From a bacterium (GTDB taxonomy: Bacteria > UBA8248), in NCBI GenBank assembly GCA_963692865.2, contig OY843592.1:3264001-3328000 (forward strand): a stretch of DNA of 64,000 nucleotides, in the 5' to 3' direction. Of this stretch, positions 506-51,743 are shown in pieces (the stretch's first letter is position 1; every line of letters starts with the position of its first letter). A program made the position numbers and the translations under genes. The notes under the pieces were generated by a model. The model made no database searches, had not been told where the DNA came from, and saw only the letters and a list, made by a program, of their open reading frames with translations.

Positions 506-674
506 GTTCGGATTTGCGCTGTTTTACATGAAGGGCGTGGCCTCACCCCAGGTCAAGATCCAGCAGATCTGCACCGGAATCATTCCGTTCGTGCTTCTGC
601 AACTGACCGGACTGGCGCTTATAATGGCATTTCCGGAAATCGCCATGTGGCTGCCGAGACAGCTGCTCAATTGA
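498..674 (+). pseudogene. 3' fragment of a TRAP transporter large permease (DctM family)
   Basis: TPPFGFALFYMKGVA...IIPFVLLQLTGLALIMAFPEIAMWLP is the typical DctM C-terminus; the rest of the gene is absent. Confidence 0.85.
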
Positions 675-2091
675 GCCATTCCTGGGCCGGTGCGGCCAGA
701 TCGGGCCTTCGGTCGACCCACGGTCTGGCGGCCTCGAATGCGGCGGCGGCGCGGAAGATGTCTTCCTCGTGCAGGATACTCGAAACCATCTGCATGCCCA
801 CGGGCAGGCCGTCCCGGGTCCATCCCGCCGGCACCGAGGCGGCCGGCTGGCCCGTCAGGTTGAACGGATAGGTGTAGTAAACCCAGGATACGATGTTGCG
901 GTCGGGCAGCTCCGGGGGCGCGTTGCAGTTCACGTCGAAAGCCGAGACGGGAAGCGTCGGCGTCAAGAGCAGATCGTAGTCCTCGAAGAAGAGGCGCATC
1001 TTCTCGCGAAAGTCGTAGCGCCGGAAAACCTTGTCGTAATACCCCTCCAGTTCCTGATCGAGGGCGCCGGCGAGCACGTCGGCAACCGCCGGGTCGAGCA
1101 GGTCCGGCTTGTTGGCGAGCACATCCTTGAGCCGGGTTCCGACGCCGGCGTAGAACTCGGCCATCCAAATGGGGAGCGGGTCCTCTTCCATGACCTGTTC
1201 GACCAGGTCCACGGTGCAGCCGAGATCCTCGAACACCCTGACGGCCTCCTCAACGATCCGGACCACCTCGCCGGTCGGCTGCGCGTAGCCGAGCGTCGGG
1301 CTCCAGGCCAGGCGCATGCCCTCGACCGGACGCTCGCAGGCGGCCAAGAAGTCGGGCACGGGCTGCGCGACGCCGAAGGGATCCCGGCGGTCGTGCCCGG
1401 CGACGGCGTTCAGCAGGAGCGCCCCGTCGCGCACGGTGCGGGTGAGCGGGCCGACATGGGCGAGCGTCGGCGTGGCGCTCGCCGGGAAGACCCCGACGCG
1501 CGCGAACTGCGCCTTGATGCCGAAAAGGCCGCTGAGCGAACTCGGGATGCGGACGGACCCGCCGCCGTCGGTTCCGAGCGCGAACGGTGTGACCCCGGCG
1601 GCAACGCTGGTCGCGGCGCCGCAGCTCGATCCGCCCGGCGTCTTGGCGAGATTCCAGGCGTTCGGCGTCACCCCGGTCAGCGGGCTGTCGCCGACCGCCT
1701 TGCAGCCAAACTCGCTGGTCGTCGACTTACCGACGATGCAGCCGCCCTGCCGCCGCACCCGGTCCACCGAGGGCGCGTCGACAGCCGCGACATTGTCCGC
1801 CATCGCCCGAGAGCCGAAGGTCAGCTTCAGGCCGTCCACGGCGATCAGGTCCTTCACCGAGATGGGTAGGCCGTGCAGCAGTCCGAGCTCTTCGCCGGAC
1901 ATGACGGCCTTTTCGGCCTGCCGCGCCGCTTCGAGGGCGAGGTCGGGCGAGGTCTGGACGAAACAGTTGAGCGTCGGCTCCAGCCCGTCCATGCGCTCCA
2001 GGGACGACCCGACGAGTTCGACCGGCGAGATGTCGCCGCGCGCGATCAGGTCCTTCAACTCGATTGCCGTCATGAACGCGAAATCGCTCAT
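667..2091 (-). CDS. Amidase signature family enzyme
   Basis: LHGLPISVKD, PGGSSCG and GTDGGGSVRIP motifs (Ser-cisSer-Lys triad); start at MSDF with ATGA overlap to upstream ORF. Confidence 0.93.
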   Translation of the reverse strand: MSDFAFMTAIELKDLIARGDISPVELVGSSLERMDGLEPTLNCFVQTSPDLALEAARQAEKAVMSGEELGLLHGLPISVKDLIAVDGLKLTFGSRAMADNVAAVDAPSVDRVRRQGGCIVGKSTTSEFGCKAVGDSPLTGVTPNAWNLAKTPGGSSCGAATSVAAGVTPFALGTDGGGSVRIPSSLSGLFGIKAQFARVGVFPASATPTLAHVGPLTRTVRDGALLLNAVAGHDRRDPFGVAQPVPDFLAACERPVEGMRLAWSPTLGYAQPTGEVVRIVEEAVRVFEDLGCTVDLVEQVMEEDPLPIWMAEFYAGVGTRLKDVLANKPDLLDPAVADVLAGALDQELEGYYDKVFRRYDFREKMRLFFEDYDLLLTPTLPVSAFDVNCNAPPELPDRNIVSWVYYTYPFNLTGQPAASVPAGWTRDGLPVGMQMVSSILHEEDIFRAAAAFEAARPWVDRRPDLAAPAQEWLN

Positions 2092-2264
2092 CGTTCCTGT
2101 CCGTCGAGCCACCCGCCAAGCGTCTCGAGCGTCATCGTAAACCGCTCGATTTCATCCACGTCTATCGCGCTGAAGGTCCGGAATAGATCCTGTCCGATGT
2201 CCTTGTGGATCCTGTCGAGCAGCGCCGTAAAACCCGGAGCCACCGCTCCCTGTTGTTCGTTCAT
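2088..2264 (-). pseudogene. 58-aa chimeric ORF: aminotransferase-like N-terminus fused to a MarR-like C-terminal helix
   Basis: MNEQQGAVAPGFTALLDRIHKDIGQDLFRTFSAIDVDEIERFTMTLETLGGWLDGQER; first ~15 codons resemble the gene at 257; stop overlaps amidase ATG; MarR resemblance is by eye only. Confidence 0.5.
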
Positions 2265-2408: not shown

Positions 2409-3462
2409 TCAGTCGGTGAAGGAAAAATCCATCCTGCGCGTCACGCTGTGCGTGTTCCCGAACGTCGGGATGACGAGGCTGTGCTTCCCGAGGCCCCCCG
2501 CGACGAACAGGCAGATGCTGTCCTCATCGGCGACGACGGGAACGCTCCCGAGGTCTTCCCGGGCCAGAAGGTCGTCCCGGCGTCCCCGTGCGCGTTCGAG
2601 GTTCGCCGGCGCGAACATAGACGTCGGCACCCTGCCCCGCTCGTACAGGAAGGCCTTGATTCGCGGCGGATCCCAGCCGTCGCGCACGAGCATGTCGACG
2701 TGTTCGGGGCCGAGGACGACCGCCATCTCCCCGCCGAAGAGCGCGTTGTTGCTCCCCGCCTGCATCATCGAAGAAGCGATGGACTGAAGCACGCCCTCGC
2801 CATCCGTGCTGGCCGCGTCGTTGACCATGATGTGCGGGTCGACGGCGATGACCGTCACGGCGCTCTCCGAACGCTCCAGGCCGCGCTCGACGTGGAGCGG
2901 CGGCCACGGGCTCGCTTCCTCATTTTCGCCGATGCAGCTCGAGAACTTGCCCTGGTGGCCGAAGGTGCTGCGATCGGTATCGCCCGGTTTGGCGCCCCCG
3001 ATGTTCTGGAGGATGAACCGGAACGCCCTGCCGATGGTGGCGTTGGCCCGCCAGCCCTGGCCGAAGAGGTTCTCCTTGCAATTGACTCCCAGCACATGTC
3101 GGGCGGGGCCGTGGACGACGATGAGCTGCGCGATGCAGTTCGTCGTCCCCTGTACTCCCGGCAGGTTGTATGCGGGGTCGAAGATGGCGTCGACGGCGGT
3201 AACGAGCACCGGCATGTACTCGGGCTTACAGCCCGCCATGGCGGCGTTGACGGCGATCTTCTCGATCGTGGCGTCGCCGAACAGATGGGGGATGCGTCCG
3301 CGGGATTCCTCGGGCGGACGACCCGATGCCTCCACCATGCCCGCCACCCGCTCTTCGGTCGGCGGGATGACGGGCAGCCCGTCCCCCCAGCCTTGTTCCA
3401 TCACGTACTCGAAACTCCAGGGGGGATTCCGCCACCTCGTGGCGCGCGGAGGCCAGCTTCAT
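2409..3462 (-). CDS. Uncharacterised UGSC-partner protein (GW.DGLP..PPT family); +1 frameshift near 3411-3425 or alternative GTG start at 3404
   Basis: Motifs WGDGLPVIPPTEERV, NAAMAGCKPEY, RANATIGRA, ENEEASPW; ATG 3462 overlaps the upstream stop (ATGA); paralog at 50715. Confidence 0.85.
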
Positions 3463-4013
3463 CCTTCGTCTTCCGGGGGCGTATGCGTGAGGGACGCCGC
3501 CACGCTCTCAAAAATCCCGTCCGCGTGGTCATGCACCGTATCGAGCGGTATTCCGGTGATGGGATGGGGGATCGAGACGAGCGGCAGGCCCGCGAAGCCC
3601 AGCGCCCGCGCCTTCTTGCGGCCGAAGGCCTCGAACATGTCCGTGATGACGGTGAGCGTGGGGAGCCCGCGCTGCTCCAGCTCGATCGCGTCGTGGATAC
3701 TCCACGGCGTGCAGGAGCCTCAGTCGGGCACGGCGTTCACCACGAAGTCGCACTCCTCGGCCATCCGGTCGATCAGGTCCTCCTCCAGCGGGAGCGCGCT
3801 GCCGCTCTTGCGGTAGTGCGTGAACGAGCCGATGGGATATTTCCCGCTCAAGCGCTCCTCCAGGCGGCGCAGCAGCTTGTCGGAGTTTGGCTTCGTGTTG
3901 TCGAGAAGGCCCAGGCGAATTCCCTCGTGGGAGGCGGGGCGCGCGGCAGGGCGCACCTTCGGGATCGGAGGGGGTATTCCCGAGGGATCGAGGATCACCA
4001 GAGTCTTCCCCAT
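3459..4013 (-). CDS. UGSC-family selenoprotein (184 aa, Sec98)
   Basis: Frame continues through TGA at 3722-3720: ...VVNAVPD-U-GSCTPWSIHDAIELEQRGLPTLTVITDMFEAFGRKKARALGFAGLPLVSIPHPI...EDEG*; UxxC motif and downstream hairpin. Confidence 0.9.
3687..3719 (-). promoter_or_regulatory. Putative bacterial SECIS hairpin
   Basis: Stem CGTGGA/TCCACG (3706-3692) with G-first apical loop GTA about 20 nt 3' of the UGA. Confidence 0.7.
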
Positions 4014-4169
4014 AGCGGACGCCTCTCCATGATGGTGAGACCGGTGATGCTATCATCGATGGGCGAGGGCCTCAACAAACCCTTGACTCGCCTCCCATGA
4101 CATGCAATCAAAACGGACGCGGATTCGTTGAAACTCCCGCGCGGCGCGGACGGCGGGCGGGTTCCGTCT

Positions 4170-5303
4170 TTACTCCTCGTTTCCGGCTTGCGGCTGGACC
4201 CGCCACACCTCGATGATCGAGCCGACGATGCCCCTGGGCGCCAGCAGAATCGTGATGATGAAGAACAGGCCGATGATCAGGATCGCCCGCTCGGTGTATT
4301 CACCCAGAAAATCGTTCAGGTAATGGACGAAGCTCGCCCCGACGAAGGGGCCGATGAGCGTTCCGAGTCCGCCGACGACCGACCAGATGACGATCTCTCC
4401 CGAATGCAGCACGTCCATCTGCTCGGTGCCGATGATGCCGTTTTTCAGCAGCACCAACACCCCCGCCAACGAGGTGAAGAATCCCGAAACGGCCGTGTTG
4501 AATATCTTGTAAGCGTTCACGTTGTAGCCGAGATAGGCGGCCCGCCGCTCGTTCTCGCGGATGCCCATGAACACGAGCCCGACGGGCGAGCGGAGGAAGG
4601 CCCGCAAACAAATGTAGGATGCGAACACGACGCCGAACGTCAGGTACCAGAAATGCGAGAACTCTCCGGTCTCGACCCCGAACAGCCCGAAAAACCCGAG
4701 TGTGGGCAAATCGATCGTCATGCCGTCCTCGCCGTTCGTCATCGAGACCCACGAATTCGCGACGATGAACGCCACGCTGCCGAAAACCAGCGTGATGATG
4801 CCGAAATAGATGTCGCGGACGCGGACGGAGAACGCGCCCATGCAGGTCGTGAGCGCCGTTCCCAGGAAGACGGCGAAGCCTATCGCCGCCCAGGGACTCC
4901 AGCCATATTTGGTCAGCATGATCGCGGCGCCGTAGGCCCCGACGCCCGCGAGCGCCGCGTGCGCGAAACTGGCGAGTCCGACGAAGCCCATCATCACGTC
5001 GAGGCTCATCGCCAGAAGGCCCAGAATGAGCATCTCGCTGTAGAAGCGCAATTCGAAATCGCCGGCCCAAAACGGCAGGCTCAAGCCCACCAGGAATATG
5101 ACGGGGGCGGCGTACCTGACGCCGAAAAAAGGCTGGAGGCCGAGCTTCACCCGCTCGGGCAATCTCGACAACAGCCATACGACGAGCGGCAGCAAGGCGA
5201 GCAAGGCGAGCAATTCCACCGCCGCCAGGACGGGCAACAGCCAGAACGTCACCCCGACCAGGACGATGACGGGAACGCCGATGCGAAGCGAGAGATCGAT
5301 CAT
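4170..5303 (-). CDS. livM: Branched-chain amino acid-type ABC permease
   Basis: GLASFAHAA, YFGIITL, GIRENERRAAYLG, VVGGLGTLIGP. Confidence 0.9.
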   Translation of the reverse strand: MIDLSLRIGVPVIVLVGVTFWLLPVLAAVELLALLALLPLVVWLLSRLPERVKLGLQPFFGVRYAAPVIFLVGLSLPFWAGDFELRFYSEMLILGLLAMSLDVMMGFVGLASFAHAALAGVGAYGAAIMLTKYGWSPWAAIGFAVFLGTALTTCMGAFSVRVRDIYFGIITLVFGSVAFIVANSWVSMTNGEDGMTIDLPTLGFFGLFGVETGEFSHFWYLTFGVVFASYICLRAFLRSPVGLVFMGIRENERRAAYLGYNVNAYKIFNTAVSGFFTSLAGVLVLLKNGIIGTEQMDVLHSGEIVIWSVVGGLGTLIGPFVGASFVHYLNDFLGEYTERAILIIGLFFIITILLAPRGIVGSIIEVWRVQPQAGNEE

Positions 5304-6184
5304 TCGAGACCCCTGTCACCCATCAGGCCGTTGGGCCGGAAAACGAGGAATACCAGAAGCACGAGCAGGCTCAGAATCTGCGGCTGGGAGCCTTCCAGGA
5401 AAATAGAGCCGATGGCCTCCAACTCGCCTATCAGGAGCGCTGCGAGCATCGTCCCCGGCAGACTGCCCAGACCGCCGACGACAACGACGATGAACGCGGC
5501 GACGATGATGTCCGACCCCATCGAATAGTCGACGCTGAATATCGGGGCGACCAGGACACCGCTCATCGCGGCGAGCCCGCATCCGACCGCAAAGACCAAC
5601 TGGTACACCCGGGGCACGGGCACGCCCATGCAGGCGGCCATTTCGCGGTTCTGGATGGTCGCCTGAATCCACACCCCCCACTTCGTTCGCGTGACGAACA
5701 GCCAGAGCAGGAGCATAATGAGCGCGGCCACTCCCATGATGACGATCCGGTAGAGGGGGAATTCCAGGTCGAAAAAGGGAACCGAAGCCTTGATCGGCGG
5801 AGCCATGAATTTGCCGATGGTGCCGAAAATCGTCAGGGCCGCCTGCTGGAGCACGAGCGCCAGCCCGAAAGACACCAGGAGGGGAATGAACGGATTTCCC
5901 CCGTGCGTCGTCCGGAACAGGCTGCGCTCTATGGCGTAACCGAAGGCGGCGACCACGACGCCCGCGATCACCACCGCGCCCCAGAAACCGACGACCGCGG
6001 AGCCGAATTTCAGCGCGAGCCAACCGGCGAACGCGCCCGCCATGTAGAATTCCCCGTGCGCGAAATTGACGATATTCATCACGCCCAGGATGAGGGTGAA
6101 GCCCGCGGCGACCAGGGCCAGCACGAGTCCGTTCTGGAGTCCCATGACGGATTCGATGACAAGGCGTTCTAGGAATTGCTCCAT
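5300..6184 (-). CDS. livH: Branched-chain amino acid-type ABC permease
   Basis: GFTLILGVMNIVNFAHGE, VVGGLGSLPG. Confidence 0.9.
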   Translation of the reverse strand: MEQFLERLVIESVMGLQNGLVLALVAAGFTLILGVMNIVNFAHGEFYMAGAFAGWLALKFGSAVVGFWGAVVIAGVVVAAFGYAIERSLFRTTHGGNPFIPLLVSFGLALVLQQAALTIFGTIGKFMAPPIKASVPFFDLEFPLYRIVIMGVAALIMLLLWLFVTRTKWGVWIQATIQNREMAACMGVPVPRVYQLVFAVGCGLAAMSGVLVAPIFSVDYSMGSDIIVAAFIVVVVGGLGSLPGTMLAALLIGELEAIGSIFLEGSQPQILSLLVLLVFLVFRPNGLMGDRGLE

Positions 6185-6897
6185 CAGGCGACTCCCAGAT
6201 GCTCGTGGAGAGTCTCCGAATCGGCCAGGACGTCAGCCGACTCGCCGCCATGGACGATTCGCCCCTTGGCCATGATGTAGCCCCGCGCGCTCGCCCGCAG
6301 GGCCAGCCTGTAATCCTGCTCGACGAGGAGGATGGCGATCTTGAGTTCCTCGCTCATCCACCGGATGATCTGCTCAATCTCGTTGACCATGGCCGGCATC
6401 AGGCCCTCGGTGGGTTCATCGAGCAGTATGAGTTTCGGTTGGGTGACGATCGCCCGCGCGAGGGCCAGCATCTGCTGCTCGCCGCCGGAAAGGGTGGAGC
6501 CGACCTGATCGGCCCGCTCCTTCAGGCGGGGAAACGACTCATAGACGGCGTCCAGATTTTTTTGTTTCTCCCCTTCGCTCAACTTCTGCAGATCGAGGCC
6601 GATGCGCAGGTTCTGCATGACGGAGAGTCTCGGGAATACCTGGCGGTTCTCTGGAACATAACCGATGCCGAGCGTCGCCATTTTGTAGGGAGGTACGCCC
6701 GTGACGTCGCTTTCGCCAAAAAAAATCCGGCCGCGGCGCGGTGGATTGAGACCCATGATGGTCCGCATGGTGGTCGATTTTCCCACGCCGTTCCGCCCCA
6801 GCAGCGAGACGGTCTCGCCTTCGGCGACCTCGAGGCTCACCCCCTGGAGGATGTGGCTTTTTTCATAATAAGAATGGACGGCTTCAAGCCGCAGCAT
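6184..6897 (-). CDS. livF: ABC ATPase
   Basis: GRNGVGKST, LSGGEQQM, LLDEPTEGL, LLVEQ. Confidence 0.92.
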   Translation of the reverse strand: MLRLEAVHSYYEKSHILQGVSLEVAEGETVSLLGRNGVGKSTTMRTIMGLNPPRRGRIFFGESDVTGVPPYKMATLGIGYVPENRQVFPRLSVMQNLRIGLDLQKLSEGEKQKNLDAVYESFPRLKERADQVGSTLSGGEQQMLALARAIVTQPKLILLDEPTEGLMPAMVNEIEQIIRWMSEELKIAILLVEQDYRLALRASARGYIMAKGRIVHGGESADVLADSETLHEHLGVA

Positions 6898-7639
6898 CGG
6901 AACTTCTCAGATATACGCGCTGCACGTCGTCGTCGTTTTTTATCTCATCGGGAGTACCTTCCGCGATGATCTCCCCGTGGTGAAACACGCTAATCTGCTC
7001 GGCGATCGACATGACGACTTCCATGTCGTGTTCCACGAGAACGATGCTCAGTCTTTCGGAGAGGCGCTTGATCAGGGCGGCCGTCTCCTGAGTTTCCACC
7101 GCGCTCATGCCGGCGGTCGGCTCGTCGAGAAGCAGCAACTCGGGCGACAAGGCCAGGGCAAGGCCGATCTCCAGATATTTCTGTTCCCCGTGCGCCAGGT
7201 TGGAAGCAAGCTCCACCCGCTTCGCGGACATTCCGATCTCTTCGAGCACTTCGTCCACACTGGTCTCGACGTTTTGATGACTGGCGGCATTGCGGAACGG
7301 ATGAAAGCTCATGGCGCGGTTCTGCGCGGCGAGGCGCAAATTCTCTTCCACCGTGAGGTTCGGAAAGATATTCGTGATCTGAAAAGCGAGGCTGACCCCG
7401 AGCCGGCTGATTTTATGGGGCGGCATTCGGGAGGTATCGACTCCGTTGATCCGGATCTCGCCGCTCGAAGGCCGCTGCACACCCATCAGCATGCTGAAAA
7501 AGGTGCTCTTGCCCGCTCCGTTCGGACCGATGATGGCCCGCAACTGGTCTTTCGGGAGCTGGAAATCGACGTGGTCGACCGCAACCAGGGCGCCGAACGC
7601 CTTGGTCAGAGCCTTCGTCTCCAGAATGAAATCGGACAC
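6884..7639 (-). CDS. livG: ABC ATPase
   Basis: GPNGAGKST, LAHGEQK, LLDEPTAG, VEHDM; GTG start at 7639 chosen. Confidence 0.9.
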   Translation of the reverse strand: MSDFILETKALTKAFGALVAVDHVDFQLPKDQLRAIIGPNGAGKSTFFSMLMGVQRPSSGEIRINGVDTSRMPPHKISRLGVSLAFQITNIFPNLTVEENLRLAAQNRAMSFHPFRNAASHQNVETSVDEVLEEIGMSAKRVELASNLAHGEQKYLEIGLALALSPELLLLDEPTAGMSAVETQETAALIKRLSERLSIVLVEHDMEVVMSIAEQISVFHHGEIIAEGTPDEIKNDDDVQRVYLRSSDAAA

Positions 7640-7668
7640 TCCGAACCTTCCCGGTGGGCGCGACGGCC

Positions 7669-7702
7669 GCCCCCTGCCCGTTGGAAACCGGGCGGGGGGC
7701 GG
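7669..7702. terminator. GC-rich intercistronic hairpin after the solute-binding gene
   Basis: GCCCCCCTGCCCG ... CGGGCGGGGGGC inverted repeat; no U-tract, so more likely an mRNA stabiliser. Confidence 0.5.
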
Positions 7703-7721
7703 ACTTCGCCGTGCCATGAAA

Positions 7722-9011
7722 TCAGGCGCAAGTGCTGAACTTTGCGTCGTAGAGCGTCGTCTTCATCGGCACCTTGTCACCGATGATCTTGAAGTGAAGG
7801 TTATCGTCCACGGTCGTCATGTAGAAATCGACGAAACCCTGGTGGTCGGTGCTGCGCAGGTAGATGTCGCCTTGCGGGAAGTCGCTGCCCTGGGAGAACA
7901 TCCGGCCCGGCCCCATCGGCGTCTTGCCGCCTTCGAGCCACTTGACCATCCTGTCCGTATCTTCCTTCCTGTCCTTGAACTTGACGGCCTGCATCGCCTG
8001 CTTGATGACGTTCATGCCGGTAAACTGCGCCTGGGCGAATCCGCTCGGCAGCACGCCCTTGCTCAGCTTCATGAACTCACCGCGGAACGCGTGGTTCGGG
8101 GCGTTGTCGAACGGCGAGCCCTTGAGATCGTTGACCGGCGAGTAGCGGTGCAGATAGAACCCGCCGACCGCGCTCTTGCCCTGCTGGGTAATGGTGTTCA
8201 CGTCGCACACCGACGCCGGCCCGATGACTTTCGCCTTTTTCGTAAGACCCACATCGCCCAGGGCGAGCATCGATTTAATGGCGGCGCCGCCCGACATCCC
8301 CATCACGATCGCGTCGGCATCCTGCGAAAGACGGTTCACGTAGGCGATGTAATCCGCCGTCTTGAGAGGAACGGGCACCGGGTCGATCCACTTGCCGCCG
8401 AGGCGCTTGAACTCGTCGCGGAAATCGAACGCCACGGACTGGCCCCATGCGAAGTCCATGTAGAGCCCCGTCGCGGTCTTGACGCCGTTCTTGATCGCCC
8501 ATGGCGCCATGGCGATGGCCTGGCTCTTCGTGGTGTTGTAGGGCCTGAAAACATATTTCGGGCAGGCGGGCGCCTTGCCGCCTGTCAGGTTGGTCGTCTC
8601 GCAACCCGTGCCCAGGACGTAGAGCATCTTGTAGCGTTTCGCCACCGGTGCGAGCTGGACGCAGATGCCGCTGCTGGAAGTACCCGTCAACGCGTCGATT
8701 TTTTCTTTCAGGATCAGCTTCTCGACCTCGCGCACGGCCTGGGCGGGCTTGAAGGCGTCGTCGCGCTCGATGACCTGGATCTTGCGCCCGTTGATGCCGC
8801 CGGCGTTGTTGATCCGGTTGACGGCGACCGTCAGTCCCCAGCGCCCCTGCTCACCGAGTGCGGCAAGCGGCCCGCTGAACGTGTTGACGTGGCCGATCTT
8901 GATGGGGGCTGCGGCCCACGCCTTTCTGAGAAAAAACGGCCCTGCGCTTGCGGTCACGGCGCCGACTGCTGCGAGCTTCAAGAAGTCACGTCTCGAGTTT
9001 CTTGCGGCCAT
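7722..9011 (-). CDS. ABC substrate-binding protein, LivK-like, Tat-exported
   Basis: SRRDFLK twin-arginine signal; IKIG...SGPLAALG...INNAGGINGRKI. Confidence 0.9.
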   Translation of the reverse strand: MAARNSRRDFLKLAAVGAVTASAGPFFLRKAWAAAPIKIGHVNTFSGPLAALGEQGRWGLTVAVNRINNAGGINGRKIQVIERDDAFKPAQAVREVEKLILKEKIDALTGTSSSGICVQLAPVAKRYKMLYVLGTGCETTNLTGGKAPACPKYVFRPYNTTKSQAIAMAPWAIKNGVKTATGLYMDFAWGQSVAFDFRDEFKRLGGKWIDPVPVPLKTADYIAYVNRLSQDADAIVMGMSGGAAIKSMLALGDVGLTKKAKVIGPASVCDVNTITQQGKSAVGGFYLHRYSPVNDLKGSPFDNAPNHAFRGEFMKLSKGVLPSGFAQAQFTGMNVIKQAMQAVKFKDRKEDTDRMVKWLEGGKTPMGPGRMFSQGSDFPQGDIYLRSTDHQGFVDFYMTTVDDNLHFKIIGDKVPMKTTLYDAKFSTCA

Positions 9012-50714: not shown

Positions 50715-51743
50715 ATGAACGAGATGGACGAATTCGAATTTTTTCTGGAGAAACCCTGGTCGGACGGCCTCCCCGTGGTGACGCCCACCGAAGAGCGCGT
50801 CGAGCGCATGCTGGCGGGAACGTCGAGATCGCCCGACGAGGCCGTGACCCCCGTTCCCCCTCTGGACGAGGTCGCCACCGTTCGAGACATCGCCGCCCAC
50901 GCCGTCATGGCCGGATGCAAACCCGAGTACCTCCCCGTCGTCATCGCGGCTCTGGAACTCATCGTGGAGGAGCCGCTCAACCTGCGCGGCGTGCAGGCCA
51001 CCATGCACAGCGTCGCGCCCCTCCTCATCCTGAACGGCCCATATGCGAAGAAGATAGGCGTCACGGGCGGGCAGGGATGCTTCGGCCCCGGCTTTCGGGC
51101 GAACGCCACCATCGGCCGCGCCGTCCGCCTGCTTCTGCTCAACCTGGGCGGCGGAATCGCGCGCGTCGCGTGCATGAGCATCTACAGCCAGCCCTCGCGC
51201 TTCACGTTCTGCGTCGCGGAGAACGAGGAGGAAAGCCCCTGGGAGTCGCTCGCCGCATCGCGCGGCTATGGTGAAGATGAAGACGTGATCACCGCCGTCA
51301 TGGTGGAAAACCCCCACATCGTCTTCAACGACGTGGACCGCGACCCCGAGCGCCTGCTCGTCTCCCACATGGACAACATGGCGGCGATGGGTTCGTGGCC
51401 CATCTGGGTGAGGTCGGACACCGTGCTCGTCCTCTCCCCCGAGCACGCGCGCCTGTGCGCGGGAGCCGGCTTCTCGCGCGCGGACGTGCACGCGTACGTC
51501 TCGGAGAACGCGGGGCGCAGGGTGGGCGAACTCAAGCGCGGCGGCCCCTGGCGGGAGGACAAGCCGAACGGGCGGTGGGAGTACCCGGTGGACAGGGAGG
51601 ATGACGACTTCTTCATCCGCGTCGTGAACGAACCCGAAGACCTGCACCTCATCGTCGCGGGCGGCGAGGGGCCCCTCGGCGCGGTGATGCCCGGCTGGAA
51701 CGGCGCCAGCCGCGCCGTGCACCGGGCGTACGAGGCGACGTGA
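50715..51743 (+). CDS. Paralog of the UGSC-partner protein
   Basis: WSDGLPVVTPTEERV, MAGCKPEY, RANATIGRA, ENEEESPW shared with 2409-3462. Confidence 0.9.
   Translation: MNEMDEFEFFLEKPWSDGLPVVTPTEERVERMLAGTSRSPDEAVTPVPPLDEVATVRDIAAHAVMAGCKPEYLPVVIAALELIVEEPLNLRGVQATMHSVAPLLILNGPYAKKIGVTGGQGCFGPGFRANATIGRAVRLLLLNLGGGIARVACMSIYSQPSRFTFCVAENEEESPWESLAASRGYGEDEDVITAVMVENPHIVFNDVDRDPERLLVSHMDNMAAMGSWPIWVRSDTVLVLSPEHARLCAGAGFSRADVHAYVSENAGRRVGELKRGGPWREDKPNGRWEYPVDREDDDFFIRVVNEPEDLHLIVAGGEGPLGAVMPGWNGASRAVHRAYEAT

Follow-up and report, generated by a model that had tools for sequence, protein, structure and literature searches.

The 64,000-nucleotide (nt) stretch of contig OY843592.1 analysed here (positions 3,264,001 to 3,328,000 of assembly GCA_963692865.2, from a bacterium of the lineage UBA8248; hereafter the window) raises the question of whether a minus-strand gene that appears to end at a TGA codon is a selenoprotein gene read through that codon, and with which protein its product would work. 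The gene is first seen as an open reading frame (ORF) of 97 amino acids (aa) at 3720..4013, whose first stop is the TGA at 3722-3720. Past this TGA, the same frame stays open for 86 further codons until a second TGA at 3461-3459. The read-through product is a protein of 184 aa encoded by 3462-4013, in which residues 97-101 form the motif D-U-G-S-C, where U stands for selenocysteine (Sec). The terminal TGA overlaps the ATG of the next gene (ATGA, 3462-3459), and a hairpin CGTGGA/GTA/TCCACG lies at 3706-3692, 14-28 nt after the in-frame TGA. The ORF, the TGA, the open frame, the overlapping ATG, and the hairpin were all found where a first-pass annotation had placed them. Taken as a whole, the results reported here make it highly probable that the gene encodes a selenoprotein of the UGSC family. 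This protein would work in a proposed two-protein seleno-redox enzyme together with the product of the downstream gene, hereafter called the partner.

The read-through protein was matched by two curated profiles. The Pfam family PF24696 scored 172.3 bits (cut-off 25), with residues 7-176 aligned to positions 2-171 of the 172 in the profile, and the NCBIfam model NF041046, 'UGSC family (seleno)protein', scored 144.6 bits (cut-off 125), with residues 31-176 aligned to positions 2-147 of 147. Both matches span residue 98; therefore, the family similarity runs across the TGA. HMMER, run exhaustively against 1.84 billion representatives, returned 1347 matches at E <=0.001. Among the best 150, which were examined, the UGA column held Cys in 143, and the usual motif was (G/A)DCGSC, most commonly GDCGSC. 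A word-index search with the read-through protein among proteins of near lengths returned no match, the PDB sequence and profile searches gave nothing meaningful, and a Pfam scan at E <=0.01 found PF24696 alone, with no match to the GrdB/PrdB family.

Four papers (PMC2398784, PMC1976440, PMC9312934, PMC13188914) present UGSC-containing proteins as a selenoprotein family that is abundant and whose function is unknown. In ocean metagenomes, the family was among the most abundant selenoprotein families, with 255 Sec forms versus 21 Cys forms in the accessible Table 2 of PMC2398784. In the literature searched for the UGSC family, PF24696, and NF041046, no assigned function was found in the portions of text available. 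The window gene is a member of this family, the 'UGSC-containing protein' of Zhang and Gladyshev, by its full profile match, motif column, Cys homologs, and hairpin of the selenocysteine insertion sequence (SECIS) type. It differs from most members in having Pro96 instead of Gly or Ala, and is otherwise in no way distinct. Thus, the gene is a further member of a known, curated, and functionally uncharacterised selenoprotein family, and by itself would not surprise a specialist. The first-pass annotation had called it a hidden selenoprotein of a known, uncharacterised family. The identity stands, and the family's status agrees with the papers cited above in their accessible parts, but the suggested novelty does not stand, since curated NCBIfam and Pfam models already exist.

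The position of the TGA was compared among paralogs and relatives. The genome contains eight PF24696 paralogs, each with exactly one in-frame TGA in the same motif column (8/8). Among 41 related genomes scanned, the family was present in 27, including all 22 other species of the genus; 184 UGSC matches were found, and each of the 150 listed had one TGA (150/150). A variant of the motif, H-U-G-S-S, in which Sec is kept and the second Cys is replaced by Ser, was noted at G000:C1:146526-147029 (L031) and at loci L154, L155, and L159, and another, D-U-G-T-S, at locus L124.

The coding signature was analysed in the window and 15 orthologous loci from other species of the genus, which share 84-93% DNA identity with the window. 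In all 16 sequences, stops occurred only at codons 98 and 185. Before the TGA, variable columns by codon position numbered 23/12/57 of 97 each, and after it 18/9/47 of 86 each. The third-position bias after the TGA is similar to that before it; therefore, the post-TGA part evolves as coding sequence. A GGAGG-like block upstream of the start stands at the same position in the 15 orthologs, and the ATGA overlap of the UGSC stop and the partner start was found at 15/15 orthologous loci.

The window sequence was also compared with Logan contigs. Over 3586-3756, contigs from three runs of one study had 0 differences from the window; these runs may include the source sample, and four runs of that study contain the stretch. 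Because the contigs of three runs were identical here, the TGA is not an assembly slip. In 19 other sequencing runs, just 5-14% of the sampled words were contained. Public contigs covered 3678-3731, the block with the hairpin and the U-G-S-C codons, about five times as deeply as the neighbouring sequence, with many loose ends at its borders; this block is evidently common to paralogs and relatives.

The Sec machinery was searched by profiles in the genome. The genes selA (567.2 bits, cut-off 267.9) and selB (391.7 bits, cut-off 242.25) adjoin each other, and selD (334.6 bits, cut-off 125) was found at G000:C1:65915-66877 (L011). Since selD itself contains one in-frame TGA, its product, selenophosphate synthetase, is probably another selenoprotein of this genome. 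The tRNA-Sec model had two matches at 76.7 bits (cut-off 47), and ARAGORN reported a tRNA-SeC with the anticodon TCA. The two tRNA-Sec matches, of identical score, lie on different contigs (G000:C1:1207504-1207596 and G000:C4:29719-29811); the assembly is rated 6.69% contaminated, and contig C4 may be a partial copy of C1 or derive from a close strain. In a Burkholderiales genome, selB lies just upstream of a UGSC-partner pair (L161 558-2855, plus strand). TGA ends 859 of the 1624 genome ORFs of at least 400 aa. As TGA is an ordinary stop here, an altered genetic code is not the explanation for the in-frame TGA.

The hairpin was aligned in 32 distinct 54-nt segments counted from the UGA, taken from the eight paralogs and 29 loci of relatives after five identical rows had been removed. 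In a helix of seven pairs (16-22/26-32), 91.1% of cells were paired, a value reached by 0/500 shuffles, and shifting the partner strand by 1-3 columns left only 12-56% paired. In the window copy, the pairs 17-31 to 22-26 form and C16/A32 is unpaired. Loop positions G23 and U24 were invariant in 32/32 sequences, and the hairpin lies in a single register after the UGA in 8/8 paralogs. Furthermore, the block that starts with the Cys101 codon and ends with the stem did not vary in the 15 orthologs, even at synonymous sites, while the codons just before this block varied. A scan of 3300-4200 against Rfam at E <=10 gave chance-level matches and no SECIS family. The E. coli element, according to PMC8659212, is a stem-loop that occupies nt 15-31; U17 is bulged, and the loop contains G23 and U24. 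Like the E. coli fdhF-type SECIS, the hairpin here starts a few nt after the UGA and holds G23/U24 in the same register; it differs in having a shorter stem and a loop of 3 nt, or of 5 nt in one group of paralogs. It is the conservation across paralogs, relatives, and orthologs that places recoding beyond chance, for which the hairpin alone would be insufficient. From this comparative sequence evidence, the selenoprotein identity of the gene and the recoding of its UGA are almost certain. The further elements that the first-pass annotation had proposed to check were also recovered: similarity to homologs downstream of the TGA in both profile matches, Cys at the UGA position in most of the best homologs, Sec machinery with selA, selB, selD, and tRNA-Sec all above curated cut-offs, and a SECIS-like hairpin with a loop G, now with a conserved register, covariation, and the invariant G23/U24 of the E. 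coli register.

Among the genes neighbouring UGSC, the partner was a constant companion. By tblastn, the genome contains 15 partner paralogs versus eight UGSC genes. All eight UGSC genes had a partner paralog on the same strand within 10 kb, seven of them directly adjacent, and 12/15 partner paralogs lay within 10 kb of a UGSC gene. One in-frame UGSC-partner fusion was present in the genome (G000:C1:328742-329248). Of the best 150 UGSC homologs, 122 were single-domain proteins of 131-260 aa; among the 27 longer than 260 aa, 25 carried a C-terminal partner domain, including all 21 longer than 450 aa. The partner was found in exactly the same 27 of the 41 related genomes as UGSC and was not found in the other 14, a set that represents only a few independent lineages.

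A wider partner scan used one genome per species and found 577 relatives, of which the best 80 loci were examined. A UGSC gene was present on the same strand within 3 kb in 72 of these; it precedes the partner in 49 loci and follows it in 23. The 80 loci came from Alpha- and Betaproteobacteria, Actinomycetota, a Robertmurraya (Bacillota), Rokubacteria, Poribacteria, and others. They contained 77 UGSC matches, 70 with one TGA and seven with Cys; the Cys forms were four Mycobacterium records, one Cupriavidus, one Candidimonas, and one Burkholderiales paralog. PMC2398784 reports that UGSC occurs fused to a domain named 'Unknown_1'. This domain may be the partner family, in which case the association is already in print. 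From these gene arrangements, we regard it as probable that UGSC and the partner form an obligate two-protein module.

The pairing also showed how ordinary gene callers split this gene, as the first-pass annotation had said they would. The public prediction P0125 breaks off at 100 aa, immediately ahead of U, and 21 of 120 listed partner homologs are mis-started inside the UGSC domain, after the TGA.

The partner itself belongs to a large family under no informative name. It matched no Pfam family even at E <=10 and no NCBIfam model, although 7247 of 8000 scored candidates were homologs; the names seen among these were 'hypothetical protein'. Its Atlas clusters are labelled 'thioredoxin family' or 'thiol-disulfide oxidoreductase family'; these labels are automatic, had no Pfam support, and were not used. 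The partner was modelled with a predicted local distance difference test (pLDDT) of 93.3 and a predicted template modelling score (pTM) of 0.93. Compared with solved structures, it gave a best Foldseek TM-score of 0.25-0.29, with no convincing counterpart. In VIA-align, the best match had Z 6.2, a root-mean-square deviation (rmsd) of 3.3, and 81 aligned residues, with residues 1-113 barely covered. Sequence and profile searches of the PDB gave nothing below E 0.4. A three-repeat 'Toblerone-like' build, suggested by weak Foldseek matches to cyanuric acid hydrolases and class I fumarate hydratase (TM 0.16-0.29), was rejected after hhalign of four segments found no internal repeat. The Cys of an AGC motif was invariant in 21/21 aligned paralogs and distant homologs.

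Several partner paralogs stand apart from the paired arrangement. A paralog of 342 aa at 50715-51743 (plus strand) has no UGSC gene within 10 kb. It retains the AGC Cys but not PLHVER and GKH, two motifs that copies next to UGSC carry; the other lone or tandem copies show the same pattern, which suggests two classes of partner at the level of sequence motifs. At G000:C1:686090-690205 (L064 11037-15242, minus strand), four tandem partner paralogs lie 3 kb from a UGSC gene, and a gene for a xanthine-dehydrogenase-type molybdenum subunit stands among them on the opposite strand.

The structure of the UGSC protein was predicted with AlphaFold from a 75-sequence alignment (pLDDT 96.4). The model consists of five beta-alpha units in series (Table 1), a flavodoxin-like alpha/beta arrangement. 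The loop that joins strand 3 to helix 3 carries Sec98 and Cys101, and the near-invariant N39, K69, D97, and H150-P151 follow strands 1, 2, 3, and 5, respectively. Such a cluster of conserved polar residues around the modelled Sec98 points to a site of catalysis more than to a simple carrier role. The best structural match had Z 11.0, rmsd 3.4, and 133 aligned residues, and 369 chains reached Z >=8. The rows shown by Foldseek and VIA-align were generic flavodoxin, CheY, azoreductase, and binding-protein domains, with no thioredoxin-fold chain among them. In 2008, the accessible text of PMC2398784 grouped UGSC with the UxxC redox selenoproteins and gave a 'likely Trx-like fold' (Trx, thioredoxin). 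The predicted model does not support this fold, although it may still hold.

The genomic context of the pair is catabolic in character. On the minus strand of the window, the order is an ATP-binding cassette (ABC) binding protein, two ATPases, two permeases, UGSC, the partner, and an amidase (Table 1). The neighbours of the other genome copies included CoA-transferase III, enoyl-CoA hydratase, and acyl-CoA dehydrogenases (CoA, coenzyme A), as well as a fumarylacetoacetate-hydrolase family member, a class-III aminotransferase, an FAD oxidoreductase, and uptake systems of the ABC and tripartite ATP-independent periplasmic (TRAP) types. The 108 nearest same-strand ORFs around the best 80 partner loci were surveyed for flanking domains. 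Pyr_redox_2 proteins resembling thioredoxin reductase accounted for 19 of them, solute-binding or transport proteins for about 10, CoA-transferase III and MpaB/Lcp-type oxygenase domains for five each, and MmgE/PrpD for three. All 19 Pyr_redox_2 neighbours had one CAxC motif. Four of them were sampled, and their best match was the thioredoxin reductase model TIGR01292 at 163-197 bits, below its cut-off of 343. Elsewhere in the window, 10366-11136 (minus strand) encodes a 256-aa protein made almost entirely of ankyrin repeats (Ank_2, 185.7 bits), which is eukaryote-like.

Table 1. Features of the UGSC locus in the window (nt positions) and secondary-structure units of the modelled UGSC protein (residue positions).
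Feature	Position	Strand	Details
UGSC-family gene, predicted selenoprotein	3459..4013	minus	184 codons; ATG 4013-4011, predicted Sec codon 98, terminal TGA 3461-3459
In-frame UGA, predicted Sec residue 98, motif D-U-G-S-C	3720..3722	minus	Compared in paralogs, relatives, orthologs, and Cys homologs
Predicted SECIS-type hairpin, loop G23-U24-A25	3691..3707	minus	nt 16-32 from the U of UGA
Shine-Dalgarno-like GGAGAGG	4022..4028	minus	8 nt before ATG, read from sequence
Partner gene, GWGDGLPVIPPT family	2409..3462	minus	Intact ORF 2409..3404 (331 aa); ancestral ATG 3462-3460
Amidase gene	667..2112	minus	Directly downstream of partner; PF01425, 308.7 bits
ABC uptake system	4170..9122	minus	Upstream of UGSC; Peripla_BP_6, ABC_tran x2, BPD_transp_2 x2
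ABC binding protein	7722-9122	minus	Peripla_BP_6
Two ABC ATPases	6884-7717 and 6184-6897	minus	ABC_tran
Two branched-chain-type permeases	5300-6184 and 4170-5303	minus	BPD_transp_2
UGSC unit 1	strand 33-38, helix 44-58		AlphaFold model
UGSC unit 2	strand 63-68, helix 78-87		AlphaFold model
UGSC unit 3	strand 90-94, helix 102-114		AlphaFold model
UGSC unit 4	strand 119-124, helix 125-137		AlphaFold model
UGSC unit 5	strand 145-148, helix 157-176		AlphaFold model

From these results, we propose the following mechanism. The ribosome would read UGA98 as Sec, and the hairpin of nt 16-32, with its loop G23-U24, would recruit SelB carrying Sec-tRNA(Sec), both of which are encoded by the genome. Sec98 and Cys101 would cycle between the selenol/thiol and selenenylsulfide states. 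UGSC would be the selenium-bearing subunit, and the partner of about 340 aa, encoded immediately downstream and coupled through the ATGA overlap, would be the other subunit. Electrons would pass from NAD(P)H through the disulfide of a thioredoxin-reductase-type flavoprotein to Sec98/Cys101, and from there to the partner and the substrate. The substrate would probably be a small organic acid, amide, or CoA-ester imported by the transporter of the operon. We put forward the feed from thioredoxin reductase tentatively, at slightly less than an even chance, as it was drawn from gene neighbourhoods and motifs.

Two known types of system help to place this proposal. The glycine reductase system takes electrons from thioredoxin and thioredoxin reductase. 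GrdA, GrdB, and PrdB share with UGSC a Sec-x-x-Cys type motif and a place in catabolic operons, and their substrate-specific partner subunit resembles the proposed pair. However, UGSC has no Pfam sequence match to them, and, as far as this could be tested, the partner shows no similarity to PrdA/GrdE. The likeness is limited to the principle by which they work. The thioredoxin/thioredoxin reductase and AhpC/AhpF relays are alike in that a CAxC flavoprotein is encoded next to a small protein whose redox motif of two residues directly precedes a helix. They are unlike in that UGSC is predicted to be flavodoxin-like and that its reductase-like neighbours score below the equivalog cut-off, none of them being adjacent in this genome.

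Several observations weigh against the explanation of UGSC as a recoded selenoprotein in a redox enzyme with its partner. Taken by itself, the hairpin is unremarkable: the fold of 71 nt had z = -1.83, and 10/200 shuffles folded at least as well. It also has no counterpart of the bulged U17 found in E. coli. The covariation, with pair 21-27 as C-G in 26 and G-C in 6 sequences and pair 18-30 as G-C in 31 and A-U in 1, is entangled with Trp/Cys and Ile/Val/Met replacements in sequences that are related to each other. One RNA run was matched by two contigs only, both from a relative, and so is evidence of neither expression nor habitat. The motif variants H-U-G-S-S and D-U-G-T-S have no resolving Cys; therefore, the U-x-x-C redox couple cannot be the whole story. 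With regard to the relay, most of the 19 thioredoxin-reductase-like cases belong to related Alphaproteobacteria, and the 19 do not count as independent; such a gene stands beside none of the eight UGSC copies in this genome.

The state of the partner gene belongs among these points. Within it, at about 3411-3414, the window is 2 nt shorter than 15/15 orthologs. From the ATG at 3462, the partner frame is lost after codon 17, and the long ORF resumes at GTG 3404 or ATG 3401. Close partner homologs (e.g., P0003) start with MKLAS.RHEVAESPLELLEYVME.GWGDG, and the relatives mark the ATG at 3462-3460 as the ancestral partner start. Over 3341-3481, three runs of one study yielded contigs with 0 differences from the window, the short form included. 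Because the same short form is present in the contigs of three runs, it is not a slip of one assembly. The window partner may therefore start 20 residues late, or this copy of the module may be impaired. Between 3404 and 3461 (minus strand), the deletion also places the partner ORF in the UGSC frame, with the terminal TGA and 18 codons between them. Purely hypothetically, read-through of the UGSC terminal TGA would join the two into a product of the same build as the natural fusions.

The main mechanistic rival to the relay is a direct catalytic role of Sec, which we consider rather unlikely. Sec would then be the catalytic nucleophile or acid/base, either in a reductive C-N or C-S cleavage like that of GrdB/PrdB or in an isomerase, and the thioredoxin-reductase-like enzyme would only regenerate the Sec enzyme. 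The near-invariant N39, K69, D97, and H150 at the strand ends around the modelled Sec98 look like an active site, which speaks for this role, as do the H-U-G-S-S variants without the resolving Cys, the partner Cys that is invariant in 21/21, and the catabolic-enzyme and uptake-system neighbours. PrdB is listed with UxxC in the accessible Table 2 of PMC2398784. However, the Pfam scan at E <=0.01 gave no GrdB/PrdB match, and the partner matches no known catalytic fold.

It is less probable still, and in our view improbable, that UGSC is a free-standing thiol/selenol oxidoreductase, a thioredoxin-like antioxidant whose neighbour is merely syntenic. The accessible text of PMC2398784 grouped the family with UxxC redox selenoproteins, likely Trx-like; thioredoxin-reductase-like genes adjoin the UGSC-partner pair in 19 loci; and single-domain proteins make up 122 of the best 150 UGSC homologs. 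A merely syntenic neighbour is at odds with the UGSC-partner adjacency across phyla in 72 of the best 80 loci, the 25 natural fusions, the identical presence and absence of the two genes in 41/41 genomes, and the joint paralog expansion in this genome to eight UGSC genes and 15 partners. Furthermore, the predicted UGSC fold is flavodoxin-like, with no thioredoxin-fold chain among the rows shown.

That the TGA is a real stop, ending a 97-aa protein or marking a decaying pseudogene whose open frame is a by-product of high G+C content, is scarcely credible: TGA is the commonest stop in the genome, high-GC DNA carries many long spurious ORFs, several of them across this locus, and the neighbouring partner gene is frameshifted, but the alignments to both profiles, Pfam and NCBIfam, continue past the TGA as far as the end, the post-TGA part shows third-position bias and is stop-free in 16/16 orthologous sequences, exactly one TGA stands in the same column in 8/8 paralogs and 150/150 listed matches in relatives, homologs carry Cys at this column, and the genome encodes the Sec machinery.

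The reading of UGSC as a selenoprotein has a direct consequence for annotation. Ordinary gene callers truncate this gene at codon 97 and likewise its seven paralogs, and fused relatives are mis-started. For the function of UGSC, the analysis offers handles in the constant partner of unknown fold, the natural fusions, and a reductase-like neighbour that recurs in some lineages. Cys-form UGSC-partner pairs exist in culturable bacteria.

Of wider interest are the strict pairing with an abundant undescribed family that has no known fold, the large paralog expansion in this lineage, and the reductase-like neighbour seen elsewhere, which provides a lead to function. One possibility, to which we assign a fairly low probability, is a widespread and undescribed Sec/Cys-dependent enzyme of two subunits, with an unmatched partner fold, a dedicated reductase, and many substrate-specific paralogs (8 + 15 in this genome) for the catabolism of organic acids, amides, and CoA-esters. 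If true, the two-subunit enzyme would be the functional counterpart, in many other bacterial phyla, of the glycine and proline reductases of clostridia.

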